The notes: a model not told the origin generated them from the letters alone. Positions 4,589 to 62,486 are shown, counted from the first letter of the stretch. The stretch: DNA of 64,000 nt from a virus (IMGVR_UViG_3300023242_000006:5476-69475); one strand, 5' to 3'. Made by a program: numbers and translations.

Positions 4589-4648
4589 CTGCTTCCATGG
4601 TACAAAGGTACATATAATATTTCATATACGCAAATAAATTTTATATTT

Positions 4649-6269: not shown

Positions 6270-6617
6270 TTACAAGGTTTCGCCATGTTTTTCTCCTTCT
6301 ACTTGTTTTTTGTTCTTGTTGTGGTACGCATCGATTTCGTCTTGCGTTGCCAAACGGTATTCAACACCATACAAGTCCAATTCTTGGTGGTCACAATGCC
6401 AGTCACAAGCAACGTGTGTTGCACCATGCGAACGCATTTCTGTTAACTTGTTGATTAGGTTTTCTATGTTAACCAGACCCGCATCTGAAAATAAGGTTTC
6501 ACCCAATTCGGTGTAGTCTTCATGTGTATCATAGTCAAAACCTAGTTCTTCAAATGGACGAGAATCCAATGAAATTTCTTGAATGTTTTTCTGGTGTAAG
6601 AATAATACGTTTTCCAT
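6270..6617 (-). CDS. Hypothetical acidic protein
   Basis: ORF of 115 aa. The promoter motif lies 17 nt upstream at 6635-6644. Confidence 0.5.
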   Translation of the reverse strand: MENVLFLHQKNIQEISLDSRPFEELGFDYDTHEDYTELGETLFSDAGLVNIENLINKLTEMRSHGATHVACDWHCDHQELDLYGVEYRLATQDEIDAYHNKNKKQVEGEKHGETL

Positions 6618-6634: not shown

Positions 6635-6690
6635 TACAAAGGTATGAAATAAAAATGACACTACCAAATGATAGTGTCACTTTTTTATTA
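6635..6690 (-). promoter_or_regulatory. Terminator-promoter cassette, copy 1: TACAAAGGTA promoter element next to the palindrome TGACACTAccaaatgaTAGTGTCA flanked by A/T runs
   Basis: Direct reading. Near-identical cassettes occur at 13732-13790 and 21155-21210. Confidence 0.6.
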
Positions 6691-6695
6691 AAAAA

Positions 6696-7289
6696 TTATT
6701 TTAATTTAGCTTTTTTACTCTCATCAATCATTTTATCCAACATATCTAACCCTTCACCTATGTTTTTCAACTTATCAACACGGAAATCTGATAACTCCAA
6801 TCGTTTAAATGGTAAAATGAACTCTTTAACCAAATCATTGTGCTTGTCGTGTCTTCCCCAATCTTTCACGTAGCCATCGTACTTACCAGTAGTTTCTACG
6901 TGGTCTAGTGTATCTTTGCAGAATGTGTTAGCTTCTTTGTATTTGTGGTCGTAACCACCAACAAAACGTTCAGCCAATTCAAGACTAGACATATTGCTTC
7001 TGATATCTAACCCACATGAAATATTTTCAATAGCATTCAAATGCAAACAAATAATCAATCGATAGTCATAAGGTAAACTATCTTTAACAAGGATTTCTTT
7101 GATTTCTCTTTCAATCTCGTTTACACGTTGGATAAAGGCAGTAGCATTTTTCTTACTCAAACACCATACGTATTTATGGTAATGTGATGGAACATAGTCC
7201 AACCCAGTAACATAATCAATTTGGAAATACTTTCCTTTTTTTGATGCTTTAAATGATGTTAGCATAGTTTTTTTTATTTGATGAAACAA
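6696..7289 (-). CDS. Hypothetical protein (possible HD-type phosphohydrolase, weak)
   Basis: His/Asp-rich segments (HYHKY, RHDKHND). Motif assignment is uncertain. Confidence 0.35.
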   Translation of the reverse strand: MFHQIKKTMLTSFKASKKGKYFQIDYVTGLDYVPSHYHKYVWCLSKKNATAFIQRVNEIEREIKEILVKDSLPYDYRLIICLHLNAIENISCGLDIRSNMSSLELAERFVGGYDHKYKEANTFCKDTLDHVETTGKYDGYVKDWGRHDKHNDLVKEFILPFKRLELSDFRVDKLKNIGEGLDMLDKMIDESKKAKLK

Positions 7290-7305
7290 AGGTAAGGATA
7301 ATAAT

Positions 7306-7512
7306 TTACCTATGCAAATATTTTCTAATAAATTTTCTTTCTTTTTTATTTAGCACGAGAACGTAGTGTCTTCCACTACGTGTTTTATAGACTTGAAGGC
7401 GTTCTTTACCCTCATAGTACCATTCATCGGTGTAGCTATGTTCTTTTATTAGTAATTCGGGATAGCAAGAGAATAATAAAAAAGCGAACACTAACAGTAA
7501 AATGTTTTTCAT
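7306..7512 (-). CDS. Small secreted protein or lipoprotein
   Basis: Signal peptide LLLVFAFLLFSC. Confidence 0.4.
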   Translation of the reverse strand: MKNILLLVFAFLLFSCYPELLIKEHSYTDEWYYEGKERLQVYKTRSGRHYVLVLNKKERKFIRKYLHR

Positions 7513-7718
7513 CGCTTTTTTATTAAATGTTTATATTTTTCACGTTGTTCTAAACGGTCTTCTTCCAAAGCATAGTTTAAATATTCAATAGCTTGGTCGC
7601 ACCATCTACCCTCACACATGTTACCTTTGGAATCACAGCGTGACCCACAGATAAAATCTTCACAAAGAAGACACATGCGTTCTTGTTGTTCTTCCGAAAG
7701 TTCATGTTGCTCCAACAT
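7509..7718 (-). CDS. Cys-rich small protein
   Basis: CLLCEDFICGSRCDSKGNMCEGRWC. Confidence 0.4.
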   Translation of the reverse strand: MLEQHELSEEQQERMCLLCEDFICGSRCDSKGNMCEGRWCDQAIEYLNYALEEDRLEQREKYKHLIKKR

Positions 7719-8491
7719 ATATTATTCTTTAAGTGTTTTTACTATGTCTTTAATCGCATTAACTGCTGACAGTAGTGTTGATGTATCGGATTTATAATCA
7801 ACTTTATCACGTGTAGTTAATGGGTAAGAACTTCTGCTTCTTTATCACCAATACGAACTTTGATTCGTAATAAACTTTCTTGTGCCATTATCTGTTTTCG
7901 TTTATGTATTGAATTGCTTCTGGTCTTAATCTCGCTCTCATTTTTGCTTGATTTTCGTAATCAAACATACGGTAAAACACCATAGCGTTGTCTTGGACAT
8001 TGGTTATTGAGTTTATTCTTTCCAATTTTTCTGTAACATACCCATATTGGTTATCGTATGTTTGCCACACAGCAATTGCTGATGCTTTCATTTCCTCAAA
8101 AATAAGGACGCTTGGTGTATTCATAATTAATGTTTTTATTAGTCTTCTTCTTCTTCTTCTGGATTGTTAGCGTCAATAATCTTTTCAGCTTTTAAATTGT
8201 ATAAAATATCTCCCATGCTATCCTGTGACAATATGTAGTTTCTAATTTCTTCAATGGTAAATGTGTTCTGCATAGCTATTATATTAATTTAATTATTTTC
8301 ATTTGTTATATCTTTAATTATTGTTGATTTAATTGGGTATGATGCTACAATATAATTCGTTTCACCGTATTCTCCTCCGTAAAATGTATAAGCATTCTCT
8401 GAGATTACGCATTCTCTACATTCGATTTTTACTCTACCTTCGTGTCCGTTGAAATAATATGATACACTAAATGTTTTTTTATTTTTCATGA

Positions 8492-11371: not shown

Positions 11372-11611
11372 TTAATAGACAGCACGTTTAACGAATCCGA
11401 AAATATCGACAGATGTTCTAACCATCATTTCTTTATCGTATTTTACACGAAACAAAATATTGTCTTTATATCTTTTTATTTTCATTGTTTTTGCGCATTT
11501 TTTAGAACATCTTGTTCTATTAATATTTGTTTCGTATTCAACGCCACAACATTCACATTTAGACTTTTTAAAGTCGATATTTCCTTTGTATTTATTTATT
11601 AAATATTTCAT
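11372..11611 (-). CDS. Zinc-ribbon small protein
   Basis: CECCGVEY...CSKKC. Confidence 0.4.
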   Translation of the reverse strand: MKYLINKYKGNIDFKKSKCECCGVEYETNINRTRCSKKCAKTMKIKRYKDNILFRVKYDKEMMVRTSVDIFGFVKRAVY

Positions 11612-11778
11612 TTTGTTTATAATTTAGGAAAGAAAAACAGCGTATAACAGCGTGTATAAAAAATGGCGGGTTCAGTGCTATTTAGAAACATTTGTGCTAT
11701 ATTCAACGCATTGCTTTCAAGTTAATTTTGTGCTTTAATTCCGCCACTTCTCATACACGCCACCCTTTAGTGGCAAAG

Positions 11779-12006
11779 CTAACCGATGTATTTCCTGACA
11801 AAGTATTGGTCACGATTACAAAACTCCGTTCTATGAGAATTTAGACCATCCCCATAAGCATCTGTTATTTGTTCAGCCTCTGTAAGTAAAAGGCTTTTAG
11901 CTTCATTAATCGCAATATTTATCACTCTATGATACAAAGGGTCATTATCCCATTTTTCTTTGGCTCCTTCGAGCCTTTTTATTAGTTGATTTAACGGAGT
12001 TTCCAT
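11779..12006 (-). CDS. Hypothetical small protein
   Basis: ORF of 75 aa. Confidence 0.4.
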   Translation of the reverse strand: METPLNQLIKRLEGAKEKWDNDPLYHRVINIAINEAKSLLLTEAEQITDAYGDGLNSHRTEFCNRDQYFVRKYIG

Positions 12007-12131
12007 TTCGTTTTTAAATTAAATTTAGTGCTGATAATCCGCCCAGCACATAACAGCGTGTATAAAAAATGGCGTTCGTAATTAATTTTTAAAAACGATA
12101 AACTTGCTATATATGGTATTTATATGATAGC

Positions 12132-12380
12132 TTAACGCCACTTGGTACTAAATTGAATACCTCCTTTTGTTTTTCTGCCATTTTTATATTCTTTTACAAT
12201 TATTGTAGGTCTTTCTAATGCTCTGCCACTAAATCCAGAAAGCCTATTTTTATAATTTAATTTTTGAACCCTAATTGCTTCTTTTTCAATTTCTTCTTTT
12301 GTTGCATCATCATGTATATCGAAGTATTCCCAGCCGTAAGAAGATTGTCCAAAATTTTGTGTGATTTGAAATTTTTTCAT
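12132..12380 (-). CDS. Hypothetical small protein
   Basis: ORF of 82 aa. Confidence 0.4.
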   Translation of the reverse strand: MKKFQITQNFGQSSYGWEYFDIHDDATKEEIEKEAIRVQKLNYKNRLSGFSGRALERPTIIVKEYKNGRKTKGGIQFSTKWR

Positions 12381-12448
12381 AATTTTGTTTTTTAATTTTT
12401 AAAAACTATAAACTTGCTATATCTGGTAGTTATAGTGCATTAATTTGC

Positions 12449-12688
12449 CTAACTATCTGTATGCCATTTGTGGCAAGGCTCACATAAATTGTCTCGGTAT
12501 TCTTTTGTAGGTTTGTCACAATCTCGGCAAACAAACGGCACAATAACAACGGGTATAGTTAATTGCTCTCTTTTGCCTTTTAAATAAGCCTCTTCCATTG
12601 CATCAAGTACATCGTCCCTTAATCTACTTTGTTCATTAAACCCATCTGTCTCTTCTTGTAATATACTTAGTAAGTTTGTTCTTGTCAT
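12449..12688 (-). CDS. Cys-rich small protein
   Basis: CRDCDKPTKEYRDNLCEPCHKW. Confidence 0.4.
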   Translation of the reverse strand: MTRTNLLSILQEETDGFNEQSRLRDDVLDAMEEAYLKGKREQLTIPVVIVPFVCRDCDKPTKEYRDNLCEPCHKWHTDS

Positions 12689-12744
12689 TTTAATTTAATT
12701 TAGTGTTATTAATCCGCAACTAACCATACCCAAAGCGTTAGCAA

Positions 12745-12951
12745 CTATTTAAAATTTGCTTTATAATCAGTTGTATCTATTTTAATCAAGTGGTAAGCCT
12801 CACTTGTTTTTCCATTGCCTTCGAGTCTATACATTACTCCATCTGTATCTTTTACTATTTTACCGTCTTTTTCGTAAGTGCATCCTACTAAAAACACAGT
12901 TGCTAACAATGTATAAAATGCATAGCTTAATTTCGTTCTTAAATTTTTCAT
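12745..12951 (-). CDS. Putative lipoprotein
   Basis: Lipobox LVGCTY. Confidence 0.4.
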   Translation of the reverse strand: MKNLRTKLSYAFYTLLATVFLVGCTYEKDGKIVKDTDGVMYRLEGNGKTSEAYHLIKIDTTDYKANFK

Positions 12952-13441: not shown

Positions 13442-13729
13442 TTAGAACGCTTGAAGAATATAACCATTGTATAAGCGTTTTGTTTCAGCTAATTGACTAC
13501 GTTCGTCTTCTGTACATTCATTCCAATGTTCCGCTTCATTATCATTGTGTTTTTGGTCATATTTGTTGATAGGTACTTTGACAATAAGTGTTTTGTCTTT
13601 ATTAACAAACACACGTCTGGTCAATCCAGTGTTCTTGTAGGTAAAGGCTTCACCATTTACAAATATAACATCAGCTGTAGATTCTACGGTAGCCGTTTTA
13701 ATGTTAACTATGTGTTCTATTCTACTCAT
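13442..13729 (-). CDS. Hypothetical protein (start at MSRIEH, 2 nt downstream of the promoter motif)
   Basis: ORF 13442..13831 trimmed. The N-terminal extension in the track is a translation of the terminator-promoter cassette. Confidence 0.5.
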   Translation of the reverse strand: MSRIEHIVNIKTATVESTADVIFVNGEAFTYKNTGLTRRVFVNKDKTLIVKVPINKYDQKHNDNEAEHWNECTEDERSQLAETKRLYNGYILQAF

Positions 13730-13731
13730 GG

Positions 13732-13790
13732 TACAAAGGTATAAAATAAAAATGACACTACCAAAAGATAATGTCATTATTTTTAATTTA
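13732..13790 (-). promoter_or_regulatory. Terminator-promoter cassette, copy 2
   Basis: TACAAAGGTAtaaaataaaaaTGACACTAccaaaagaTAATGTCAttattttt. Confidence 0.6.
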
Positions 13791-13802
13791 TTTTCAGTAA
13801 TA

Positions 13803-14111
13803 TTAAAAAAACAAGTTAATAAACCACGCAAATAACAATACTAACCATGGTGTGAGTAATAAATTACCCCACATTTTGCCGTTGTCTTCATATTCACTCT
13901 TAATCGATACACCTAAACTAGGTTTTATTGCTGTTAAAAACAACGAAAAACCTACAAACTGCAACACTGTGAAATGTGGTGCATCAGCAAATGCCGATAA
14001 GATAAACCAACCATACAATGTGTGTGCGATAAAACCCCAGACAAATGCGTTGTAACATAAGATACCTAATGTTAAACCAATTACACCAATCAATACTAAT
14101 AAACTTTCCAT
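13803..14111 (-). CDS. Membrane protein
   Basis: Multiple TM segments. Confidence 0.45.
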   Translation of the reverse strand: MESLLVLIGVIGLTLGILCYNAFVWGFIAHTLYGWFILSAFADAPHFTVLQFVGFSLFLTAIKPSLGVSIKSEYEDNGKMWGNLLLTPWLVLLFAWFINLFF

Positions 14112-14768: not shown

Positions 14769-15027
14769 TTTTTGAACTTAATAGTGTTTGTAATTCGTTA
14801 AAGTCAGAATCACGTAGCTTTTCATCCTCATAATACGTATAGCTACTAAAAGATTGTGGGGTTTTTTCTTCAAGTTCAATTGAAAAACCACTTACATCAC
14901 CTTTACTAATTTTACCAAATTTGGTAGGGTCTTTAAGGATTTTTTTTAAATCGTTTTTAAGGGCGATATTTAATATGTTTATTTTCATATAGCAAAGATA
15001 TTAAAATTATTTATAATAAACAAATTA

Positions 15028-20286: not shown

Positions 20287-20389
20287 GGCTTTTTGGTTTT
20301 AATTATTAATACGATACAAAGGTAGGGAAAAGAAATGAAATAACCAAATCTTTTCCCATATTTTTTAATTAATTTGCAACAGCAACTTC

Positions 20390-20630: not shown

Positions 20631-20721
20631 TGTTTTTATATTTTAATTATTAATATGATACAAAGGTAAGTAATTTCCTGGACACTTGCAAATTTTTGAC
20701 CAGGTTTTTTCAAAATATTTT

Positions 20722-21126
20722 TTAGTCGATTACAACTTCATTGGAAACCAATGAAGTGAAGAATGGTACGATTCTCCAAAGGTCTTCTTTAGCAATACGG
20801 ATATTGACATTGTGGTCGTCAGTTTCTTCAATACGACAATCGTTGTCGTGGTAGTTAACCCCATCAACTGAAACTTTCATGATGTTCTTCTCATAAACTT
20901 TCCAAAGTTTATCAGAAATACTACCATATAGGTCTAGGTATTCTCCCTCATAAGGACACTCGGTATCATCAACGACTTCTTCCAAGTTCTCAAATGGTGC
21001 ATCCATGAGGTTTTCAGATAGTTTTGGTACGGCAAGTTCCATGATTTCTTGTTCTGTCGCATCTACATCAACAATTACTCTTGTTACTAAAGATACTCTT
21101 ACTAATTTTGCTACTTTTTTTGACAT
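20722..21126 (-). CDS. Hypothetical acidic protein (start at MSKKVAKL)
   Basis: Trimmed from ORF 20722..21198. The extension is the cassette translated. Confidence 0.5.
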   Translation of the reverse strand: MSKKVAKLVRVSLVTRVIVDVDATEQEIMELAVPKLSENLMDAPFENLEEVVDDTECPYEGEYLDLYGSISDKLWKVYEKNIMKVSVDGVNYHDNDCRIEETDDHNVNIRIAKEDLWRIVPFFTSLVSNEVVID

Positions 21127-21154
21127 GACTTTTGGTTTTTTAATTATTACATGA

Positions 21155-21210
21155 CAAAGGTAGAAATAAAAAATGACACTACCAAACGATAGTGCCATTA
21201 TTTTTAAATT
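21155..21210 (-). promoter_or_regulatory. Terminator-promoter cassette, copy 3
   Basis: GACAAAGGTAgaaataaaaaaTGACACTAccaaacgaTAGTGCCAttattttt. Confidence 0.6.
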
Positions 21211-21219
21211 ATTTTACAT

Positions 21220-22374
21220 TTATTCTTTTTCATTATTCGTTACACACCACCAAACCGTTGCTACAGATATGATTAGCGTTAATAAGTAAACAAATATCAA
21301 TTGACCACTAGTCGGTTCAAATGACAGATAATTAAAGTCTTCAAACGATTTATATTTCCAATGTGTTCTAATTGCATTATAGTATGTCTTGTGGAATAAT
21401 TTACTATCTGGGTTTTTAGCTGACATTAATTCTTCACGAATATCAATCAACACCCTTTTATTATCACACCATGAAAATGGTTTGACCCATTCAAACTTAC
21501 CATTCTTATCAACACCAATACAAACAACTATCTCGTTCTGGTTTCCACCATCCCAATATGCTTCTTGCAAGAATGCTGTGTTTATGTCTTTGCTCTTAAA
21601 GAATAACGTAAACACCTTAACTTTATACTGACTACCATAAGCACCATTTATATGGTCTAGTGTTTTGGCGAAACCCCATTTATTGTTTATTTTGGTGTTT
21701 TCTAACCCTAATACTGATGTTTGATAATTGTAATTTGCAATTTTTGGGTAATCATATAGACTAGCTTTTTTTGCTTCTTCTTCGGTAATTTCTGGATAGT
21801 TAAACGCAGAGTGATTACTTTTTAATATATTTGTAAACGGTTTCTCATATGTTGTTGTTTCAGATGTATGTACCTCTTTATCCCATGCGAAGAAATACAT
21901 ATCCCCATCTTTACCACAACTACCTCTATAATCTATATCTCGATTAAGGTCAACAAATTTAGGCTTACCACGCCATTGCTTCATCAATGATTTGTACTTG
22001 GACAGACTAATACCAATCTCGTTACCTTTTGTGTCAATAATTGTGTAATGTTCAGCGTTGTAATCACAATATGAACAGTCATAATACACTGTGTGTGTTG
22101 TCCTTGTTTTACCGCTACCAGTTGAGTAGGTTCTGCTACACGTTTTCTTGACCCAAGTTTCGTAAGGTTCGTAGTATCTAGCTTCTGTTACGATGAACCC
22201 ATTGTATTCGGTATCACTTAACGTATAGCTTTTTATTGAATAGTACGAAATCAATATGAAAAGGATTGAACCCGCAGTTGGTATGAATAACTCCCACCAA
22301 ACAATTTCTTTTTTAAATAATACCCATCCAACTATTACAGCTAAGATGGGTATTAATAGTGCGTACCAAATCAT
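21220..22374 (-). CDS. Membrane-anchored protein (N- and C-terminal TM helices)
   Basis: TM segments at both ends of a 384-aa ORF. It overlaps the stop of the upstream gene at 22374. Confidence 0.5.
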   Translation of the reverse strand: MIWYALLIPILAVIVGWVLFKKEIVWWELFIPTAGSILFILISYYSIKSYTLSDTEYNGFIVTEARYYEPYETWVKKTCSRTYSTGSGKTRTTHTVYYDCSYCDYNAEHYTIIDTKGNEIGISLSKYKSLMKQWRGKPKFVDLNRDIDYRGSCGKDGDMYFFAWDKEVHTSETTTYEKPFTNILKSNHSAFNYPEITEEEAKKASLYDYPKIANYNYQTSVLGLENTKINNKWGFAKTLDHINGAYGSQYKVKVFTLFFKSKDINTAFLQEAYWDGGNQNEIVVCIGVDKNGKFEWVKPFSWCDNKRVLIDIREELMSAKNPDSKLFHKTYYNAIRTHWKYKSFEDFNYLSFEPTSGQLIFVYLLTLIISVATVWWCVTNNEKE

Positions 22375-22958: not shown

Positions 22959-23188
22959 ACGTTTAAATTTTTAAGTTATTATTATTTAGATTACAAAGGT
23001 ATATAAAAATTTTGGTTTTACCAAATTAATTGCTATCTTTTTTATTTTTTTTTCTTTTGTGTGGTAATGTTTTGTAATATTGATAAGTATCTTTTGAAAG
23101 GTCTCTTTGGTCTACTAGTTGTGATTACATTACAATTGGGGTAACGCATAGGTAGCAAGTTTAAAAACAAGACCAAACATTATAAGTA

Positions 23189-24928: not shown

Positions 24929-25136
24929 TTTTGGTTTGTGTTAATTATTATAATGCAAAGGTATATATAATAATTTAACCCACCAAATATTTTTATGAAT
25001 TTCTTTAATTTTTGGTGCAAAAAGTGTTTTCCTAAAACTTCGTATGTTACCATGCCACTAATTTTATTTGACAAAAAAAAAAACGAAACTTCAAAGAGAA
25101 ATCTCGTTTTTTTTTTGAAAAAAGTTTAGTTTAATT

Positions 25137-28100
25137 CTAATCTTTAATTATTTTTATTGTCCTTGTTTTTAATTTAACAAAATATACACCCTTAGTTAAA
25201 TTACCAAAGTAAATAGTGTTACCATCTTGTTTTACCTTGATACTTCTACCCAAAACGTCATAAACTTTTACTCTTATATCGTTAGTTTCTAAGTAAAGAA
25301 CATCTCTAACGGGGTTAGGATAGGCGTAAAATAAGTCTTCTTTAACTTCCACCACTTTAAGAGGCTCTTGATAAACCAATTGAAATCTACCATTAAATTC
25401 GCCAACTTCTGATGTAAATGTATGGGGTAGTGAGTGTAATACTCCGTTATCTTTTACGTATACATTTTGTATTCCTTGAATTGAATCTAGTGATATTGTA
25501 AAGGTTTCGGCAACTGCTGTAAAATAACCTAACCCAACAACATCATTAACGTCAAACTCACCTCTCGACTGTATTTTATTTAAGTTATCAGAGTCATCTA
25601 AAGAGTAAAATTTAATAGCTTTTCTTGGAGATGAATCAATGTAGTCCCACCCCTTCTGATAGTTTTTAGTTGTTTCAGAGCTGTAACCTATAAGTTGTTG
25701 AGAAAATAACCCTAACTCTGTTGTTAAATTTAACCAAACCCTTTTAATTGAATCTTGAGATGTTCTAAAGAATACTACACTCGTCGTATTATCAATAACT
25801 TTATCCATAAAACTAGGTCTGAATATCAAATCATTTTCTGTCTGAGCCTCAACTAAGAAACCTTGCCCGCTACCAATCGCTGATGTTGGTATCTTACTAG
25901 TAAACGTTGCTGTAGTTCCTATTGTACCAGAAGTAGCCGTTCCACCTAATAAATTGTAATACGCATAATCCGAGGTAGAAAAATTATTAGCTTGTAGCCC
26001 TGGGTAAGTTGTTAAAAAACTCCCCGTATGTGTCCAATATGCTAATGTTCCGCTAATATTTGCTAAGTTTTCATTAATAAAATCGTTAGCTTTAATTGAC
26101 GATGAATAGGGGTTTCCCACTAAATTAAAATCATCAATATTACTAGAACTATTACCACTTAATTTTAATGGATATACAATCACCCCCGTATTCAAATCTC
26201 CCGTAAATGTCACTAGCTCGCCTCTTGGGTAGGGTGGTGAATTTGGTATTGATTTTATCATAGATGCATATCCCTTTCCCGCAACCATACTGTCTGTTTG
26301 GCTAGATAGAGTCCAAGCAAAGGGAGCTTCATCATCTTGACCATCGGGGTCATCAGATTGAAATACTCCGTTAAGATGCGTTTTAGTATCTAAAAAATTT
26401 TCCGTTATAAATTCAAATGTATAGTTATTTTGCCACGCCCCTAATGCTTGACTTATTGTTGTATTTACAGAGCTAGACAAATATGTATAGTCATATCTTT
26501 TCATTTGGGTAGTTCTTCTCTGAACAGAAATATTTCCATTTGAAGTTGATGAATCATTTATTGGTATTAATTTTCCACCCGATTCCACTATAAGACTTCC
26601 AAGATTCTCAATGTGGTTCTGAACAGTTACAAAATCACCCGATTTTACAACTAGACTCCCATTAACAGTTAAATTACAACAATCGAAGCTACCATTTATA
26701 GAAGTGTCATAATTACCATTTATTACAGCATTTCTAGTCTGAGAGGGGAAACCACCAACCCAAGAAGTTCCATTCCAAGTTGATGTTAAATTACAAGTAG
26801 CTAGTGTAATATTCTGATTTAATATATTATATCCATTAACATTATCCCACAAGCCAACATTAGCAAATTGAATTGAGTAACCAAGGTTATTTTCTAAATT
26901 ATTATCCGCTATATGTAATAACAACTCATAAGTGTCATTAGGCAAATCATTAGGTATTGTAATTGTAAATGAGTTCGTTCCCTTGTTAAGTTCTCTAATA
27001 TCAAAATTAATTAAGCGTTTAGTATAAACAGTTCCTCTTTTAAAGACTAAATATAATTTCTTTTCGTATAAAATATTAGCGTACCCAACATTATCTACGT
27101 TTAAGGTAAGTTGATTACCAATAATACTACTTGAGCGAAGTACAAGCCTATACCCAAGGTTTTTAATAATGGTTTCATAGTGGTTAGAAGCAATCCAATT
27201 ATTCCAAGTTGGAATATGGTAGTCTCTATTTAAAGTTGTAAAATTAAGATTATTCATCTCAGTAATAGCGTTAGAACCACTTGTTCTAGGAGGATTAGAC
27301 CCGTTAGTTTCACCCGTCATTGGTAAATAGCGAGAAGTATTAGATATGAACGTGTAGTCGGACGAACCCACAGGATTAGTAAATTGACCGCTAACACTAT
27401 AAGTCCCCATATCTGCATAATAATTTAAAAAAGCATCGTTATAGAAACCAATTCTATCCCCTCCAAAATTAGTAGGTACAGAATTACCATACATTATTCT
27501 CTTAGCATTAGCATATCTAAGTTGTAGTGGTATGTCAATATGAAAGTTTGCTAACATTGAATCGACAACTTCCTTTCTATTAGCCCATTGCACGTTTGAT
27601 ATAGTACCCGCATGCCCAAATTCGGTAGAGCTTGTATAATACCATTCACCCCAAGTTCCTATAAAACCCGCTTGAATTGACATTACAACATCTTTATTTA
27701 AATTTACAACATTTGACAATTGAGAGATGTGGCTTAGTATTTGAGACTTAGCGGGTTGTTGTAAATTAGTGCCACTATAACAATTTGAATCACAATCATT
27801 AGTATAAGCAAATCTTATAATAACCTTTAATCCAGCATTGCGAATTCTGTCAAAATCTGTTTGCATATTGGTAATATAAGTTGATGTCAAAGCACCACTT
27901 GGTAAAATAAAATATCTGTATACGACAGTGACTCTATCGGTGGATGTGCGCCAATTAGTCAAAGTACTTTGAGATAGTTGATTATAGGAGAAAGAGGTGG
28001 CGGGGGAAAGTAAAGAGCCTGATATATTGATAGAATATTTTTGTAACCCCCTTTCAGGGTTTTCTATTATTGCAGTACTTTCGGTGTAATTTATGGTTTG

Positions 28101-28295
28101 GGATACCGCTACAAAATTGATGAATAATAACACCAAATATATTAAGTTTTTGCGTTTAACATTGATACCTTCTACTACATGATACCAACCAGATAACTCT
28201 CGGTCAACGTTATCTTCCTTTTCAGTCACATCTTTATAGTGTGATTCAATTTTGTCAAATTGATTAATGAAATCAACTAATTTTAATTTTTTCAT
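25137..28295 (-). CDS. Large secreted protein with T9SS (Por) C-terminal sorting domain
   Basis: C-terminus FYAYPNPVRDVLYLE...VKVYDVLGRSIKV....GVYFVKLKT matches the Bacteroidetes T9SS CTD pattern. The N-terminal 45 aa duplicate the N-terminus of gene 24551..24928 and are followed by a signal-peptide-like LIYLVLLFINFVAVSQ. Confidence 0.7.
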   Translation of the reverse strand: MKKLKLVDFINQFDKIESHYKDVTEKEDNVDRELSGWYHVVEGINVKRKNLIYLVLLFINFVAVSQTINYTESTAIIENPERGLQKYSINISGSLLSPATSFSYNQLSQSTLTNWRTSTDRVTVVYRYFILPSGALTSTYITNMQTDFDRIRNAGLKVIIRFAYTNDCDSNCYSGTNLQQPAKSQILSHISQLSNVVNLNKDVVMSIQAGFIGTWGEWYYTSSTEFGHAGTISNVQWANRKEVVDSMLANFHIDIPLQLRYANAKRIMYGNSVPTNFGGDRIGFYNDAFLNYYADMGTYSVSGQFTNPVGSSDYTFISNTSRYLPMTGETNGSNPPRTSGSNAITEMNNLNFTTLNRDYHIPTWNNWIASNHYETIIKNLGYRLVLRSSSIIGNQLTLNVDNVGYANILYEKKLYLVFKRGTVYTKRLINFDIRELNKGTNSFTITIPNDLPNDTYELLLHIADNNLENNLGYSIQFANVGLWDNVNGYNILNQNITLATCNLTSTWNGTSWVGGFPSQTRNAVINGNYDTSINGSFDCCNLTVNGSLVVKSGDFVTVQNHIENLGSLIVESGGKLIPINDSSTSNGNISVQRRTTQMKRYDYTYLSSSVNTTISQALGAWQNNYTFEFITENFLDTKTHLNGVFQSDDPDGQDDEAPFAWTLSSQTDSMVAGKGYASMIKSIPNSPPYPRGELVTFTGDLNTGVIVYPLKLSGNSSSNIDDFNLVGNPYSSSIKANDFINENLANISGTLAYWTHTGSFLTTYPGLQANNFSTSDYAYYNLLGGTATSGTIGTTATFTSKIPTSAIGSGQGFLVEAQTENDLIFRPSFMDKVIDNTTSVVFFRTSQDSIKRVWLNLTTELGLFSQQLIGYSSETTKNYQKGWDYIDSSPRKAIKFYSLDDSDNLNKIQSRGEFDVNDVVGLGYFTAVAETFTISLDSIQGIQNVYVKDNGVLHSLPHTFTSEVGEFNGRFQLVYQEPLKVVEVKEDLFYAYPNPVRDVLYLETNDIRVKVYDVLGRSIKVKQDGNTIYFGNLTKGVYFVKLKTRTIKIIKD

Positions 28296-28449
28296 TTTTG
28301 GTTTGTGTTAATTATTTTTATTAATTCATTGGGATTATTAAATTATTTGTATTACCTTTGTGTAACTTTCATAAAACCTGTGGTCTTACAACCACATATA
28401 TAAAGTCATGCACACTATACTCAATATAGTCTTCGAGTTTAGGTCTATA

Positions 28450-29210: not shown

Positions 29211-29504
29211 TTAGTTTAATTTTTTTTCAAAGTCTTTTTCTATTTGTACCATAACCACTTCTTTAAATGCTTGGTTTATTATTTTAGAATCAACACCAAA
29301 AATTTTACATAACTGTATTTCTACATCCCAAAGATAAGTATTTTTATCTGATTCTATTTCTTTGATACTAAAGTCATGGGCCAAAGGAAAACTTTTTCCT
29401 TTGGCCCTATCAGCATATATTCTGTAAACAACATAATGCTTGTCAATATATTTTTTGACAAGCATCACATTAAAAATATCTTCTTTACTATTAATCAAGT
29501 TCAT
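29211..29504 (-). CDS. Hypothetical protein
   Basis: ORF of 97 aa. Confidence 0.4.
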   Translation of the reverse strand: MNLINSKEDIFNVMLVKKYIDKHYVVYRIYADRAKGKSFPLAHDFSIKEIESDKNTYLWDVEIQLCKIFGVDSKIINQAFKEVVMVQIEKDFEKKLN

Positions 29505-30369
29505 TGTAAGCTAAAAGAACTCTAGGGTTTCTTCTCAATACGTTAAGTGATTTTTCACGTACTTGACGTACTCTTTCACGAGTTATCCCCATTCTATCAC
29601 CAACTTCATTAAGAGTCATAGGATTATTACCATTCAACCCAAATAAACATTCCATGATTTCCCTATCTCTTAAAGATAAAACACCAAGAATTGAGTTTAT
29701 TTCATCAATTAAATTTGAATCATTCAATATATGGTCAGTTGCTTTAAATGAATTATCAGCAATCAATTCACCTAACGCTGAACCACCATCATCGTTACCA
29801 ACTTGACGGTCCAATGAATCCATATTATATGTGCTTAATACATCTAAAAACAGGAAATCTTCATCGTTCATTTCGTTACCAAACTCTTCCATTACTTCTT
29901 GAACATCTACTTTACGACCTTTTATTTGTTCAAGTTCAGCAATCTTTTTATTTAACTTAGATAAGCTATTCAATTTATTTGCTGGAATACGAACCATCGT
30001 ACCATTCTTTGCGATGTGTTCTAGAATTATTTTTCTGACCCACCATACAGCATATGAAATAAATTTATAACCCATACTTGGTGTGAATTTCTCAGCAGCA
30101 ATAACTAATCCGATATTACCTTCATTTACTAAGTCTTCCAATGCTATACCATTACTAACATATTGTTTAGCAACTGACACAACAAAACGTAAATTTTTTT
30201 GAACTAATTCATTTATGGCTTTTTCATCACCTAAACTTGCTCTTTCACTAACAGCAAATTCTTCTTCTGGGGATGAGAACAAAGGAACACTCCCAATTTC
30301 TTTTAAATATTGTTTGAAAGATTCATTCTCTCTATTGGTAAGTTTGTACGAAATTTTTAATTGCTTCAT
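29491..30369 (-). CDS. RNA polymerase sigma-70 family factor (regions 2-4)
   Basis: Region 4 HTH LNEVGDRMGITRERVRQVREKSLNVLR. Region 2 FISYAVWWVRKII. About 290 aa. Confidence 0.8.
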   Translation of the reverse strand: MKQLKISYKLTNRENESFKQYLKEIGSVPLFSSPEEEFAVSERASLGDEKAINELVQKNLRFVVSVAKQYVSNGIALEDLVNEGNIGLVIAAEKFTPSMGYKFISYAVWWVRKIILEHIAKNGTMVRIPANKLNSLSKLNKKIAELEQIKGRKVDVQEVMEEFGNEMNDEDFLFLDVLSTYNMDSLDRQVGNDDGGSALGELIADNSFKATDHILNDSNLIDEINSILGVLSLRDREIMECLFGLNGNNPMTLNEVGDRMGITRERVRQVREKSLNVLRRNPRVLLAYNELD

Positions 30370-32258: not shown

Positions 32259-32397
32259 TTTTCTTTAACTTCTGAACCCTGTAATTGAATACCAGCAGTA
32301 TATTTTTCTAGAATGAAATATTCAAAATATGCTTTCTTGTTAGAACAAATTTTATTCATTTTTTATGTGTTTTTAAATATAAAAGGTATTTAAATAG

Positions 32398-32471
32398 TGT
32401 CCACAACAGGAGTCGAACCTGTGACCTATCCCACATTGGGGGAGTGCTCTAACCAACTGAGCTATGTGGAC
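32398..32471 (-). tRNA. tRNA (74 nt) with textbook acceptor, D and T arms, and an anticodon loop CCAATGT that lacks U33
   Basis: Minus strand GTCCACA-TA-GCTCAGTTGGTTAGAGC-A-CTCCC-CCAATGT-GGGAT-AGGTC-ACAGGTTCGACTCCTGT-TGTGGAC-A. The anticodon would formally be AAU, so the identity is unresolved. Confidence 0.7.
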
Positions 32472-35123: not shown

Positions 35124-35225
35124 TGGTACATCGTATAGGAATCGAACCTATGTTACCGCAAGCGATTGGTACTTAATCTTCCGATGTGCTCTCATTTCGG
35201 CATTCTACCATTAAACTAACGATAT
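35124..35225 (-). tRNA. tRNA-like element A (encodes CCA; good T-arm; about 98 nt if the distal 5' acceptor strand is used, or a 60-nt minimal form)
   Basis: 3' end ..ATAGGTTCGATTCCTAT-ACGATGT-ACCA. Complementary 5' strands are ACATCGG at 35181-35187 or ATATCGT at 35219-35225. Confidence 0.45.
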
Positions 35226-35336
35226 GTTTGGTTATATTATATGGTGGTCTATCACCACAATGTTTTCAATAGTACTGTTTTATGTGTGCCTCACGTGATT
35301 ACTCACATCAATGTCGCTTTAATAATATAACCTAGA

Positions 35337-35408
35337 AACTCATACTGGATTCGAACCAGCGTCTGCGGGCTCAACGCCCACCATAGTGTCCACTCTACCA
35401 ATGAATCA
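35337..35408 (-). tRNA. tRNA (72 nt) with anticodon loop CGTTGAG (formally UUG, Gln-like, but G at position 33)
   Basis: GATTCAT-TG-GTAGAGTGGACACTAT-G-GTGGG-CGTTGAG-CCCGC-AGAC-GCTGGTTCGAATCCAGT-ATGAGTT-T. Confidence 0.55.
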
Positions 35409-35505
35409 ACTATCACTATGTCGCTCGGCAAAGTTAAACGTGATAGAAAGGATTATAACCGTCTGAAAGTTTGCCGACCTTCATGTTGCTATTCCCCAAT
35501 TTTGT

Positions 35506-35603
35506 GCGAGAGGGTGGACTCGAACCACCGACACCCAGTCCCTAGTTGTTCCCTTGTACTTCGGGCTAAAGACCTTAGCGTTTACCACTTCGCCACTCTC
35601 GCA
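35506..35603 (-). tRNA. tRNA-like element C (98 nt): perfect 7-bp acceptor stem GCGAGAG/CTCTCGC, 3-bp D-stem, good T-arm, but no canonical anticodon stem
   Basis: GCGAGAG-TG-GCGAAGTGGTAAACGC-...48 nt...-GGTGGTTCGAGTCCACC-CTCTCGC-A. Confidence 0.45.
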
Positions 35604-39849: not shown

Positions 39850-41877
39850 CTATAATCGAATTATTGTTAAATTAATATTCTTTTTATCGATATCTACACT
39901 AGAAACTACAACGTGAACCATATCACCCAAACGAATCTTATCACCTGTGTTATACCCTTTAACACAATAGTTACTCATATCAACTTGATATGTATCACCA
40001 GAAATTTCAGATAACTTAATAAGTCCTTCGGCTTTGGAATCAATTAATTCAACGTATATTCCGTATTCAGTTAATGATGTGATTATACCTTTATTTACAG
40101 TACCTACTTTATCGTTTAAATAAACACAATACATGTATTTGATTGAGTCACGTTCAGCTTTCTGTGCTTTCTTTTCTCTTTCAGATAAATGAATACATCT
40201 AGTTTCTAACTTCTCTAACTTAGGTGTTGTTTTCTTGTTCTCATCCAAATACAAAGCTAACAATCTATGAACGATTACATCACTGTAACGTCTGATTGGA
40301 CTAGTAAAGTGTGAATAGTTAGCAAAACCTAAACCATAGTGACCAATGTTTTTTGTTGTATAGTTTGCTTTTTGCATTGTTCTGACAACTAAGTTATTAA
40401 CCATATCTTCTTCAGCAGTACCACGTATATCTATTAACAATTTGTTAAGGGATTTTGTTGTTTCTTCTGGGGTATCGATTTTAATATCGTAACCAAACTG
40501 AACAATAAAGTCTTTTAACGCTGCTAACTTTTCTTCGTTAGGTTTATCGTGTGCTCTATTCACGTTGGGTAAACCTTTCGTGTTGATGAACTGAGCTACG
40601 TGTTTATTCGCTAACAACATGTATTCTTCAATAAGTTTGTTTGAGTCTTTGGCAACCTTGAATATAATCCCAGTTGGTTTACTATTCTCATCCAATTTGA
40701 ATTTGACCTCTTGTTTATCAAATGATAAAGAACCTTTTATCAAACGAACTTTACGCATCTTTTTAGCTATCTTGTTCAACGCCAATACAGCATCGGCTAG
40801 TTTTCTAGCTGGGTCCCAACCTAATAACCTTAAACCAGTGTCTTCCAATAGTATTTTGGTTCTACCCTCAACATCGTCTTTAGGTAACCTACCCAATTCA
40901 ATGATAGCTTGCGCTTCTTCGTAGCTAAATCTGTGGTCAGAGTTAATTACGGTTCTACCGAACCATTCTTCTAACACATGACCATTGTGGTCTAACTTAA
41001 AGACAGCAGAAAAACATAATTTATCTTCATTAGGTCTTAACGAACATAACCCATTAGATAGGTTCTCTGGAAGCATAGGGACACATCTATCAACTAAGTA
41101 AACACTTGTACCTCTGGCAAAAGCTTCTTTATCTAATTCGCTATCTGGACGTAAGTAATGTGATACATCGGCAATATGAACGCCAACATACAACTCACCA
41201 TCAAGCCATTCCACGCTCAACGCATCGTCAAAGTCTTTGGCATCAGCTGGGTCAATTGTGAAGGTAAGTACATCACGCATATCTCTACGTTTATCAATTT
41301 CTTCTTGTGTAATTTCTGTAGAAATCAAATTGGCCTCCATAATTACATCTGTTTCGAAATAGTAAGGTAAACCATATTCTTCTAAAATACTATGTATCTC
41401 AGTTTCGTGTTCACCAGCATTACCTAGAATTCTGATAACTTCACCGTTAGGGTTTTTAGCACCTTCTTTCCATTCAGTTATACTTGCAATTACTTTTTGG
41501 CCTTCTGTAGCACCCATTGTCTTGTTTAATGGAATAAAAAAGTCAATTGGTAGTTTGTTGCTATCTGGAACAAAGAAAGCAAATTTAGCGCTTATTTGGA
41601 TTACACCAACAAACTCTGTTCTAAAACGCTCAACTACCTCAATTACTTTACCTTCAAGTGCACGACCTTGACCAACCATTACCTCAATTTTTACCTTATC
41701 CAAATGCAACGCATGGTTAGTGTTGGTTTTATGAACATAAATGTCTTTTGGTAAATTCTCACTCACCAAATATGCGGACCCACTTTGAGTCATTGAGATT
41801 CGCCCTTCTAGTATGTCACCAACATTAATTCTATTTATTTTTTTTTCTATCATTATTATTTTTTTACAAATATACAT
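39850..41877 (-). CDS. RNase R / RNase II family 3'-5' exoribonuclease
   Basis: 675 aa with N-terminal OB/cold-shock-like region, central RNB-like region and C-terminal S1-like domain (..GIITSLTEYGIYVEL..). The size is that of VacB/RNase R. Confidence 0.65.
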   Translation of the reverse strand: MYICKKIIMIEKKINRINVGDILEGRISMTQSGSAYLVSENLPKDIYVHKTNTNHALHLDKVKIEVMVGQGRALEGKVIEVVERFRTEFVGVIQISAKFAFFVPDSNKLPIDFFIPLNKTMGATEGQKVIASITEWKEGAKNPNGEVIRILGNAGEHETEIHSILEEYGLPYYFETDVIMEANLISTEITQEEIDKRRDMRDVLTFTIDPADAKDFDDALSVEWLDGELYVGVHIADVSHYLRPDSELDKEAFARGTSVYLVDRCVPMLPENLSNGLCSLRPNEDKLCFSAVFKLDHNGHVLEEWFGRTVINSDHRFSYEEAQAIIELGRLPKDDVEGRTKILLEDTGLRLLGWDPARKLADAVLALNKIAKKMRKVRLIKGSLSFDKQEVKFKLDENSKPTGIIFKVAKDSNKLIEEYMLLANKHVAQFINTKGLPNVNRAHDKPNEEKLAALKDFIVQFGYDIKIDTPEETTKSLNKLLIDIRGTAEEDMVNNLVVRTMQKANYTTKNIGHYGLGFANYSHFTSPIRRYSDVIVHRLLALYLDENKKTTPKLEKLETRCIHLSEREKKAQKAERDSIKYMYCVYLNDKVGTVNKGIITSLTEYGIYVELIDSKAEGLIKLSEISGDTYQVDMSNYCVKGYNTGDKIRLGDMVHVVVSSVDIDKKNINLTIIRL

Positions 41878-58421: not shown

Positions 58422-58955
58422 TTATTGTTTTAAAGTTTCTCTTACTCGCATAATAGCTTCACCTAACCAGTTTTTACCTTGCCATTTGCTCTTATCTTCA
58501 ATATTTCGGTGTTCAACACCCATTCCAATCCCCCAGATTTTATCGTAAGGGCTTGCTTCAACAATTTCTCTATCTTCAGTTGCTAACAATGATGTTTTGA
58601 AACTTATATTCTGTGTAAACTTGGCCAAGTTACCTTGATAAACAAATTCTCTACATACTCCATTCCATCTATTTGTATCGAAATTTTTAACACTACGACC
58701 CAAAGCTTTTTGTTCTTTTGGGTTTGTAGTATTCATAATAGTTTCATATACTTCCATATCTTTGAAATATAAAGCTTTTTGGGCCATCATGTATTGTTCA
58801 CAACTAGTGTAAGTGATTCCAGCAATGACAAACTTTGATGGATGCCATTGACTATAAATCCCATTCCAAAAGAATACAAACTCGTCTGTTATTGTAACGT
58901 CTTTTGTTCCCATAATTAAACTTTTGCTCGTTCTCTCACTTCTTCGAATGTCCAT
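58422..58955 (-). CDS. NADAR (YbiA/DUF1768) domain protein
   Basis: FFW...SQW.PS.F.I.G..YTSCEQYMMAQKALYF.D......I.....P.EQKALGR.V.NFD...W......V...GN.AKF.QN......LL.T....IVEASPYDKIWGIG. Confidence 0.7.
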   Translation of the reverse strand: MDIRRSERTSKSLIMGTKDVTITDEFVFFWNGIYSQWHPSKFVIAGITYTSCEQYMMAQKALYFKDMEVYETIMNTTNPKEQKALGRSVKNFDTNRWNGVCREFVYQGNLAKFTQNISFKTSLLATEDREIVEASPYDKIWGIGMGVEHRNIEDKSKWQGKNWLGEAIMRVRETLKQ

Positions 58956-59937
58956 TCTTTAGTGATTATACCGTTTCTGAACACTTCTACCAACTCATCT
59001 GTAACATCGTTGAACTCAGAATCCATTGAAGTAACTGTTCTAAACGTACCATCGTCATTCTTAACCAATTTAAGTAACCCTTGTTTTGATTTCTTGAATG
59101 ATTTTGTGATGTTACCATTAGCATCCATCTCAGTTGGAGATTTGATGATATTCTTTTCTTCACCATTGACAATAGCATAACATGCTTTGGTTGCAAAGTT
59201 TTGCGTATCACGGTTGATATCGGCTTGTAATAATTTGCCACCCATACCTAAAGCTAAGTTTTCTGGTGATATTTTTTGTTCCTCTAACAATGCATAGATT
59301 TCTTTGATTGAATCTAGATTAACACCATCACCTTGAATCACACGAACTTGTGGTGGTAACACTTTATAACCCTTATCGTTTACTGTGTAACCGAATTTGT
59401 CGAATAATATAGTGAAAATTTCTTTCAATGTCATTAACACGTCACCAGAATCTGGACGGATAACTAGTTGATTTCCTGGTTCTGATGGGCGAGATAGTAC
59501 TAAGTCTCTCAATTCAGTTCCCCAATACTCAGAACATGCACGAAAGATATTGTATGAATCAGATACACACGCAACTAACCCAGTAGGGAATGTTGTAAGT
59601 ACTCGTTTCATCATTTCCAATTCACCTTCTTCACCTTTAAGTGTCATGATAGAGTGTTCAGTTGCTGGGATAGATAACCCATAAACCGTTTCTGTATTGT
59701 AGTAATCTCTGATGTATTTAGATGCCATGATTGTGTCAGACCCTCTAAAGTTTACCAAGTGAGCAGAGCCACCGATACCAGCTGATTGTACAGACGATAC
59801 ACCACGGAAACCGAAGTCATTCAACACGTAATCAACCAGAAACTCTCTTAACCCAGTATCATATGATGTGTTTTTTTGAAAACTACTATCTACTATTTTA
59901 CGAACTTCTCTCGAAAGTGTAGCAACCGTAATCGGGT
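58916..59937 (-). CDS. nadV: Nicotinamide phosphoribosyltransferase NadV/NAMPT, exon 2
   Basis: ...YPITVATLSREVRKI...VLNDFGFRGVSSVQSAGIGGSAHLVNFRGSDT... The frame is open upstream of the track ATG and reads back to a splice-like boundary. Confidence 0.7.
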
Positions 59938-61415: not shown

Positions 61416-62414
61416 TTATTCACCAGTGTAAGTTACATTATCAATTCTTTCAACTAATCTTTCACCAATATTTGGTATAAGTTTTTCATCGTAAACTTTG
61501 TTAACCAAAGCCAACATCATTTCACGGTGTTCTGGCATTACTTTGGTTCTAACCGTATCAAAGTTACTGAACTCTCTAATTGGAATCCATTTAACATCTG
61601 CGATATCATCACTAGCTTTTGCGTAACCCATATTTTTGCGACCCAAGAATAACGTAGTCATTATCCCAGATTCTTCTTTGGCATATCTCCAATCTTTTAC
61701 TCTATGACTTAAGATATATTTTAAGTCGCTGATAACACAATTACCACCAGTTTCTTCACGAAACTCTCTCAAAGCTGCTTTTTCATAGCTTTCATCTGTC
61801 GGGTCAACAAATCCACCAACGAATCTCCAATACTTCTCGTTAGGTTTTCTACCCATAAGAATCTCACCTTCATCGTTGTATGCACAGATATCAACTGTTG
61901 GATAAGAGACTGGTCTTTGATTAAATGCTGAGTAGATAACACCAGACCTAAAATCAGTAGAGTCAAGAGTTTCTTTAGCGACATCTGCTCTAATGTTTGT
62001 AGCGTTATGGTTAAAGCTAGCTTCTAATTCAATAACTTGAAATTTGCCTTTGTAATGAGGAATGAACGAATCACGGCTACCATAAATAACTGTTTTCTTT
62101 TCACCAAACGGCATAGAAATAGCTGAATCAATTTCTGAACTCCATTTTTCATCGTATCTTTGGTCCATTACTGGTAAAATCATTAAACTAGGAAACGATT
62201 TTTGAATCATAGCTTTACGACTAGCAAAATCCAAAGGGTTTTTCTTGGTGTTTTGTACTCTAGACACACCTAGGATAAGTACAGTTTTTTTATGATTTGA
62301 AAGGACGTGGTTAATCAAGTCAATATGTCCTTTATGTAATCGGTTTGTTTGAAATCGCCCTATAACAACCCCAACTTCAAAATCCGTTGGTTCTATGTTT
62401 TTTTTAATGTCCAT
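61416..62414 (-). CDS. Bifunctional NMN adenylyltransferase / Nudix hydrolase (NatV/NadM-Nudix-like)
   Basis: N-terminus GRFQ..HKGH (nucleotidyltransferase H-x-G-H). C-terminal Nudix box GGFVDPTDESYEKAALREFREETGG. Start trimmed to MDIKK, downstream of the promoter motif at 62438. Confidence 0.75.
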   Translation of the reverse strand: MDIKKNIEPTDFEVGVVIGRFQTNRLHKGHIDLINHVLSNHKKTVLILGVSRVQNTKKNPLDFASRKAMIQKSFPSLMILPVMDQRYDEKWSSEIDSAISMPFGEKKTVIYGSRDSFIPHYKGKFQVIELEASFNHNATNIRADVAKETLDSTDFRSGVIYSAFNQRPVSYPTVDICAYNDEGEILMGRKPNEKYWRFVGGFVDPTDESYEKAALREFREETGGNCVISDLKYILSHRVKDWRYAKEESGIMTTLFLGRKNMGYAKASDDIADVKWIPIREFSNFDTVRTKVMPEHREMMLALVNKVYDEKLIPNIGERLVERIDNVTYTGE

Positions 62415-62486
62415 ATTTGATTTTATTTTTATAGTACAAAGGTACAAAAAAAAATGCAGATAAAACAAATTATCTAAAAGTTTTTT

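Follow-up and report, generated by a model that had tools for sequence, protein, structure and literature searches.

Three gene boundaries within a 64,000-nt stretch of viral DNA (the window) carry nearly the same 56-nt sequence. This raises the question of what the repeated element does: whether it ends transcription of the gene before it, starts transcription of the gene after it, binds a regulator, or is a mobile repeat. The minus strand carries every substantial open reading frame (ORF) near the three copies, and they are therefore read here as the reverse complement. The window has a G+C content of 31%, and its products include a sigma-70-family protein, an RNase R-like protein, NAD-salvage enzymes, and a protein with a type-IX-secretion sorting domain. 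One gene has distant protein relatives in the jumbo Tenacibaculum phages PTm1 and pT24 and in Lak phages, and IMG/VR contig 3300037294_000399 matches the window at 92-97% identity with many indels. Judged by this gene content and these relatives, the window belongs to the genome of a large Bacteroidota phage. A near-identity DNA search of GenBank phages with the 5-23 kb region returned no matches.

Several other features of the window were recorded. Positions 1-2774 on the minus strand hold a tandem array of at least 11 small paralogous genes (55-95 aa); their products start with M[IK][IL]GKSIKDKV, continue with 8-18 tetrapeptides of the form x-[D/N]-S-V (RDSV, WNSV, YDSV, and similar), and in most cases end in IPKIK or IPNIK and one further residue. 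TRF describes a 12-nt period with about 180 copies over positions 1-2140, and the array of paralogs is also present in a close relative (L024, approximately 11400-12760). Genes for tRNAs are located on the minus strand at 32397-32471, 35127-35225, 35335-35407, and 35504-35602. ARAGORN identified tRNAs for Ile(AAT) and Gln(TTG) as well as a tRNA of 99 nt for which it gave an unusual 4-base anticodon, and Rfam identified a second 99-nt tRNA-like sequence (35127-35225) that is absent from the ARAGORN output; the two 99-nt tRNAs may be intron-bearing or degenerate.

The 56-nt element (hereafter the cassette) is present in exactly three copies in the window, all near-identical, intergenic, and on the minus strand. 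The pattern TGACACTA-N8-TAGTGTCA matches at 6656-6679 (no mismatches), 13753-13776 (one mismatch), and 21174-21197 (one mismatch), where 0.46 matches are expected at up to three mismatches. In a scan with a covariance model of the full 56-nt cassette, with filters off, copies 1, 2, and 3 scored 78.6, 73.2, and 76.6 bits, respectively (E approximately 1e-13 to 1e-14), and the next best site in the window scored 36.9 bits. This gap rules out a chance repeat and, together with the pattern matches, confirms the first-pass annotation, in which a single composite had been reported at three sites. No Rfam family was found at the cassettes. Read on the minus strand, each cassette has the same order: the upstream gene's stop codon, an A-rich stretch of 12-26 nt, a 5' arm TG[A/G]CA[C/T]TATC, a loop NTTT, the 3' arm GGTAGTGTCA, a run TTTTT(T)ATTT, and TACCTTTG, with the ATG of the next gene 4-27 nt past TACCTTTG.

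In cassette 1, the stop codon of the upstream gene (6696-7289) is located at 6696-6698 and is followed by the A-run AATAAAAAAG (6680-6689, within the part at 6680-6698). The hairpin comprises the 5' arm TGACACTATC (6670-6679), the loop ATTT (6666-6669), and the 3' arm GGTAGTGTCA (6656-6665), and pairing of the A-run with the U-run lengthens its stem to 15 bp. A TTTG at 6665-6668 is followed by the U-run TTTTTATTTCA (6645-6655), TACCTTTG (6637-6644), and the start codon of a 115-aa gene (6615-6617). Cassette 2 begins with the stop codon of a 102-aa membrane-protein gene (13803-13805) and an A-rich run (part 13777-13805), followed by the 5' arm TGACATTATC (13767-13776), the loop TTTT (13763-13766), and the 3' arm GGTAGTGTCA (13753-13762), with one U·G pair. 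The U-run TTTTTATTTTA (13742-13752) and TACCTTTG (13734-13741) are then followed by TACC and an ATG at 13727-13729. Cassette 3 begins with the stop codon of a 384-aa gene (phrog_2087; 21220-21222) and an A-rich run (part 21198-21222), and its hairpin comprises the 5' arm TGGCACTATC (21188-21197), the loop GTTT (21184-21187), and the 3' arm GGTAGTGTCA (21174-21183), with one G·U pair. The U-run TTTTTTATTTC (21163-21173), TACCTTTG (21155-21162), and an A-rich leader precede the start codon of a 134-aa gene (21125-21127). The perfect or near-perfect palindrome described earlier is thus present at all three sites, but only copy 1 is perfect, and copies 2 and 3 have one mismatch each. Similarly, the hairpin itself stands, but as a 10-bp stem with a 4-nt loop NUUU rather than as two 8-bp arms around an 8-nt gap.

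The strand on which this hairpin is stable bears on its role. Minus-strand RNA of copies 1, 2, and 3 folds at -18.4, -15.9, and -15.4 kcal/mol (z -5.9, -4.8, and -5.2), and none of 200 shuffles was equally stable, whereas plus-strand RNA folds at -12.7, -6.1, and -8.2 kcal/mol (z -3.2, -1.0, and -2.2). The single mismatch in copies 2 and 3 is a transition, which leaves a G·U pair on minus-strand RNA but an A·C mismatch on the plus strand. All three hairpins begin 12-26 nt past the upstream stop codon in sense orientation, and a U-rich tract (UUUUUAUUU(C/U)A or UUUUUUAUUUC) lies directly 3' of the stem. In the 4-24 kb region, only four terminator-like sites have a long stem (12 pairs), namely the three cassettes and a site at 19058-19031; cassette 1 is called on the plus strand and the other three sites on the minus strand, and the cassette 3 hairpin is the top terminator-like site of the region. 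Additionally, when the sequence upstream of the -7 box was folded for all promoters in the window, the three cassettes gave hairpins of -13.5 to -18.4 kcal/mol, and all others were at -8.2 kcal/mol or weaker. An RNA stem-loop, a U-tract 3' of the stem, a sense position past the stop codon, and compensatory change among relatives (see below) are the features of an intrinsic terminator, and all of these were found. The earlier prediction of a terminator hairpin for the upstream minus-strand gene is borne out to this extent. The stems are AU-rich, with 3-4 G-C pairs, and are regarded as predicted terminators, in vivo efficiency aside. At 10-15 bp they are short for classical RNase III substrates, and an RNase III site was rejected on this general ground. 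Minus-strand genes at 39850-41877, 58916-59827, and 61416-62468 encode an exoribonuclease resembling RNase R (RNB, CSD, and S1 domains) and enzymes of NAD salvage (NAPRTase; cytidylyltransferase-like plus NUDIX); transcripts that end in a hairpin may be affected by an RNase able to degrade structured 3' ends.

The second half of the cassette resembles a promoter. The primary sigma factor of Bacteroidota recognizes a -33 TTTG and a -7 TAnnTTTG (PMC7366714, PMC9723704), and the -7 box is placed at -12 to -5 (PMC9723704). TACCTTTG, present in all three cassettes, fits the sigma-A -7 box, and a -33 TTTG is formed by the last three loop bases and the first base of the 3' arm. The gap between this TTTG and the -7 box is 20 nt and consists of the 3' arm and the U-run; elsewhere in the window, 22 TACCTTTG sites can be aligned on a -33 TTG, and approximately 17 of them have this 20-nt spacing. 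The cassettes therefore carry both elements of a Bacteroidota sigma-A promoter at the family spacing. Across the window, the promoter consensus is an A-rich tract, TTTGG, a 20-nt spacer, and TACCTTTGTA. For what had been called the promoter decamer, ACAAAGGTA, the window has 26 occurrences where 1.4 are expected (24 on the plus strand), and the 9-mer TACCTTTGT also occurs 26 times, a 19-fold enrichment, such that the -7 box is nearly invariant. Terminator and promoter therefore overlap, with the -33 TTTG placed in the loop region and the spacer made up of 3' arm and U-run. The first-pass annotation was thus correct that the hairpin is joined to the promoter of the next gene, but the two do not abut.

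In cassette 2, the spacing TACCTTTG-TACC-ATG predicts a leaderless mRNA. Exactly 4 nt between TACCTTTG and ATG are found at six minus-strand promoters (4602, 13733, 34374, 43747, 52376, and 57821), at each of which transcription would start on the A of the ATG and give a leaderless mRNA. These make up about one quarter of the window promoters, compared to a leaderless fraction of 5.5% in Flavobacterium psychrophilum (PMC9723704). Weaker hairpins of other sequences that enclose or include the -33 TTTG are located on the minus strand at 20314-20368, 20658-20713, 22991-23046, and 62434-62490; examples are GGGAAAAG...CTTTTCCC, CCTGG...CCAGG, TTTGGT-AAA-ACCAAA, and AGATAA-TTTGTT-TTATCT. They suggest that the overlap of terminator and promoter is a general design in this phage. 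On the plus strand, positions 28353-28420 hold a TACCTTTG copy with an upstream -33-like TTG, followed by the hairpin TGTGGTCTTACAACCACA, and this arrangement is kept in the relative L022. The plus strand has six copies of TACCTTTG and only two of TACCTTTGT, and this site is among both. It is oriented away from the adjacent genes and could be the promoter of a small or antisense RNA.

Taken together, it is likely that each cassette is an intrinsic terminator for the upstream gene and an overlapping Bacteroidota sigma-A-type promoter for the downstream gene, and that it acts as a homology patch for genome modules. Polymerase arriving from the upstream gene would transcribe the A-run, the 10-bp stem with its 4-nt loop, and the U-run UUUUUAUUU, and the RNA would be released there, inside the next promoter. 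On the same DNA, sigma-A holoenzyme would recognize the loop-region TTTG as the -33 box and TACCTTTG as the -7 box across the 20-nt spacer of 3' arm and T-run. The new transcript would begin about 5 nt past TACCTTTG, which at cassette 2 is exactly on the ATG. The outcome would be that each small gene or gene pair forms an insulated transcription unit. Additionally, cassettes, like the phage's promoters generally, would serve as homology patches for the insertion, deletion, and reordering of modules, because the cassette recurs both inside single phage genomes and among related phages.

If the hairpin acts as RNA, then pairing and geometry rather than sequence should be preserved among relatives. 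IMG/VR was searched with a pattern in which the stem is left free (TTTGG-N8-TTTTT-N6-TACCTTTGT). This stem-blind pattern gave 68 unique sites, of which approximately 35 have a strong hairpin wrapping TTTGG and ending at the T-run, with at least 15 stem sequences. A covariance model trained on 34 same-geometry copies gave 91 matches in viral loci, 83 of them distinct. In these 83 members, 94.6% of stem cells pair and changes on both sides are found in 9 of 10 pairs (127 cells), although the alignments used for pair counts were chosen or fitted for pairing and the percentage paired is thus inflated, partly by construction. Covariation was 0.565, compared to 0.228 for shuffled and at most 0.114 for slid partners. 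The compensatory changes, the stem-blind sample, and the site in L160 that is orthologous to cassette 3 are free of this pairing-selection bias. At the L160 site, an unrelated stem (GCGAGATTA/TAATCTCGC) surrounds TTTG and is followed by T7 and TACCTTTG, and the downstream gene is 77% identical over residues 1-60. What is conserved is thus structure and geometry, and the sequence can be replaced.

The same family distinguishes the strands. The sense fold is stabler than the antisense fold in 76 of the 83 members (means -13.4 vs -7.7 kcal/mol), and G·U makes up about 20% of stem pairs. It had also been claimed that the A- and T-runs on both sides would allow termination in both directions. The A-run does supply a U-run on the antisense strand; nonetheless, copies 2 and 3 form only weak antisense hairpins (-6.1 and -8.2 kcal/mol), as does the family as a whole, and no convergent genes were found among the ORFs at the three sites. 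Given the weak antisense folds, the share of G·U pairs, and the predominance of sense-stabler members, the bidirectional reading is unsupported and was rejected.

An inverted repeat centred on a -33 box, in three near-identical copies of which copy 1 is perfectly symmetric, could also be a DNA operator at which a dimeric regulator represses or activates the three downstream genes. The two-fold symmetry is not kept, however: the commonest variant, TGGCACTATC/GGTAGTGTCA, has two G·T positions, and the roughly one-fifth of stem cells that are G·U are mismatches on the other strand. The stems covary freely, and the orthologous site in L160 uses an unrelated one. Furthermore, a T-run always follows and a stop codon always precedes the element, neither of which an operator needs. 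Conserved symmetric half-sites were thus not found, and a palindromic operator was rejected as very improbable. A replaceable stem with kept geometry fits a terminator acting as sense-strand RNA and does not fit a DNA operator.

The stem is not equally variable on its two sides, and this is relevant to whether the sequence itself is recognized. Most variation lies in the 5' arm, mainly as A/G and C/T, whereas the 3' arm GGTAGTGTCA is found again in numerous phages whose coding sequences can no longer be aligned and is more uniform than a passive terminator needs. The exact 18-mer TTTGGTAGTGTCATTTTT occurs at 30 IMG/VR loci, about 24 of them in cassette context; the contigs are 12-362 kb long, and approximately 20 different ones carry the 18-mer in cassette context without other DNA that aligns to the window. 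Because the 18-mer search holds the 3' arm fixed, the apparent conservation of that arm is biased; in the stem-blind sample, the commonest 3' arm is TAGTGTCA, the type found in TTTGGTAGTGTCATTTTT, with 13 of 67. Similar spacers are found in hairpin-less promoters (TTTGGATATGTCATTTTT, TTTGGAATTGTCATTTTT; ...ATATGTCATTTTT, ...AATTGTCATTTTT), and in the window's own promoters a weak T-C/A-A signal is seen at the corresponding positions of the spacer. A simple reading is that the 3' arm is doubly constrained, in that it is also promoter spacer, and the 5' arm need only pair, which would explain why variation lies mostly in the 5' arm. Another explanation for the uniform 3' arm is concerted evolution among copies.

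These observations could alternatively mean that the cassettes form a switchable or class-specific element, in which either the near-invariant 3' arm (approximately -31 to -22) or the RNA hairpin is recognized by a phage factor. Candidates would be the phage's own sigma-70-family protein, a MotA-like (-30-box) activator, or an antiterminator or other RNA-binding protein. The recurrence of TTTGGTAGTGTCATTTTT in cassette context without other alignable DNA, its 3' arm as the commonest in the stem-blind sample, the concentration of variation in the 5' arm, the like spacers of hairpin-less promoters, the signal at the same spacer positions in the window, and the RpoD/RpoS-like sigma encoded at 29491-30369 all favour such recognition. 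In contrast, many members, and the orthologous site in L160, use different stems in the same geometry, which argues that the sequence is not required. Moreover, the fixed 3' arm of the 18-mer search biases the comparison, and shared descent with concerted evolution by recombination would also maintain uniformity, as is reported for the PeSL cassettes discussed below (PMC2839356). Recognition by a phage factor is thus considered unlikely. If true, the cassettes would be a switchable class of temporal promoters or of stage-limited terminators, with starts and stops that differ as infection proceeds. The sigma-70-family protein itself (292 aa, minus strand, 29491-30369) has regions 1.2, 2, and 4, and its best models are RpoS/RpoD, with scores under the cut-offs; it may read the near-invariant TACCTTTGT promoters.

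In the related contig L018, approximately 10 cassettes are found in 14.6 kb, each between the stop codon of a single 64-127-aa ORF and the next ORF, and a fourth copy of the cassette is present in the close relative L002. A conserved protein of 156-163 aa (starting ...LNYQLG.YVGEYI...) is encoded downstream of cassettes in L029, L004, L015, L002, L012, and L013, and a type-1 cassette precedes it in at least five large-phage contigs, which makes this an orthologous cassette position. When genome contigs were scanned with the 18-mer, nearly all of the 56 loci were chance matches, only L131, L145, L147, L095, and L120 were cassette-like, and no host assignment was obtained from them.

The cassettes had also been proposed as a recombination hotspot for module shuffling, and the window was compared with related phages. 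At cassette 1, window positions 6670-8491 are missing from a 94%-identical relative; the missing segment comprises five small genes together with the A-run, 5' arm, and loop of the cassette. In that relative, the orthologous downstream gene is preceded by TTTGGATATGTCATTTTTTATCCATACCTTTG, a hairpin-less promoter without the 5' arm, and a 68%-identical ortholog of the same gene has no promoter. For cassette 2, the downstream gene in L151 and L152 lies directly behind a promoter of the 14139 type without a hairpin, and in L152 and L155 the gene upstream of the cassette in the window is placed about 650 bp downstream instead; in this comparison, the blocks of homology stop at the -7 boxes. Cassette 3 is conserved in the only close relative available for it, and a search for loci related to its 384-aa upstream gene returned that relative alone. 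Other breakpoints fall in the spacer of the promoter at 14993 and at the -33 of the promoter at 4603, and a 3.3-kb insertion with a 1052-aa gene is flanked by a 24-nt direct repeat of leader and start (AATAATTAACACAAACCAAAAATG). The 1052-aa gene (minus strand, 25004-28307) encodes DUF4874, DUF4832, and a type-IX-secretion C-terminal sorting domain, and is missing from the 93-97%-identical relative L022. It has its own hairpin and T11 terminator (25116-25069) and no recognizable promoter directly upstream, and a tblastn search with its protein gave no matches.

Promoter and cassette sequences thus delimit modules, with two of the three cassettes at such boundaries among the few relatives compared. 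The hotspot claim holds in part: cassettes 1 and 2 do lie at the boundaries of inserted or transposed modules, but because breakpoints also fall at promoters and leaders that have no hairpin, the hairpin need not be the recombination site. Gene disruption is selected against, which by itself pushes breakpoints into intergenic DNA. Recombination at such shared sequence would be the probable cause of the mosaicism. Multi-copy, intergenic elements that are common to several phages and located at indel boundaries might instead be selfish repeats, small REP/MITE-like mobile palindromes that spread between genes without a regulatory role. The cassettes, however, always have the orientation of the flanking genes and are in fixed register with the stop codon, U-run, -7 box, and start codon; their -33/-7 spacing equals that of other promoters; and neither target-site duplications nor terminal inverted repeats beyond the hairpin were found. 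A selfish origin is thus barely credible, the least probable of the readings considered, and the cassettes are further discussed as overlapping terminator-promoters.

Each part of the cassette has a known counterpart. As in canonical intrinsic terminators, an A-run, a stable hairpin, and a direct U-run lie just past a stop codon; in contrast to them, the loop and 3' half double as -33 box and spacer, and the stem sequence is common to many copies. As in Bacteroidota sigma-A promoters (PMC7366714, PMC9723704), TACCTTTG is at -7, TTTG lies 20 nt upstream, the upstream tract is A-rich, and leaders are short or absent. Unlike in the usual promoters of this kind, the -7 box is almost invariant (TACCTTTGT, 26 copies) and the -33 box is inside a hairpin-forming repeat.

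For the composite as a whole, repeated terminator-promoter cassettes were previously found described for T4-type phages of Proteobacteria, as PeSL (promoter-early stem-loop) cassettes (Arbiol et al. 2010, PMC2839356; Comeau et al. 2014, PMC4122927), and no such cassettes were found described in the literature for Bacteroidota, Cellulophaga, or crAss-like phages. What is new is the same design assembled from different parts in large, mostly uncultivated Bacteroidota phages, with the -33 box in the terminator loop and the U-tract as spacer. The cassette provides a sequence signature for annotating transcription units in such phages, compact and portable terminator-promoter parts for Bacteroidota genetics, and a testable system for the question of whether repeated regulatory cassettes drive mosaic genome evolution among phages in general.

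PeSLs and the present cassettes are alike in their short, intergenic succession of stop codon, AT-rich tract, stem-loop terminator, host-type promoter, and start codon, and in their many similar copies, dense among small ORFs of unknown function. The layout of L018 is that of PeSLs in T4-type hyperplastic regions (PMC2839356, PMC4122927). PeSL subclasses include those in which the stem-loop overlaps the -35 box or lies between -35 and -10, and the elements overlap here likewise. PeSLs are found at indel or replacement boundaries between close relatives, as are cassettes 1 and 2 among the few relatives compared, and a role of PeSLs in module insertion, deletion, and reordering has been shown for T4-type phages (PMC2839356, PMC4122927). 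Nonetheless, the two have no sequence homology. PeSLs have a sigma-70 -35/-10 promoter with a Shine-Dalgarno sequence, whereas the cassettes have -33 TTTG/-7 TAnnTTTG and no Shine-Dalgarno sequence; PeSL stems are of the type GGGG...CCCC, whereas those of the cassettes are AU-rich with G·U pairs; and PeSLs have five positional subclasses, whereas the cassettes have a single geometry, with TTTG in the loop and the U-tract as spacer. The lineages also differ, T4-type phages in one case and a large Bacteroidota phage, distant by protein to PTm1 and pT24, in the other. For PeSLs, there is experimental proof of promoter activity, terminator activity, and mini-circles; the present cassettes are known from sequence. 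The cassettes therefore share with PeSLs a composite of promoter and stem-loop, repetition among small ORFs, and, for cassettes 1 and 2, a boundary position, but not the sigma-70 -35/-10 boxes, the Shine-Dalgarno sequence, the G/C-tract stem, or the T4-type genome. By this comparison, they are a non-homologous Bacteroidota analogue of PeSLs.
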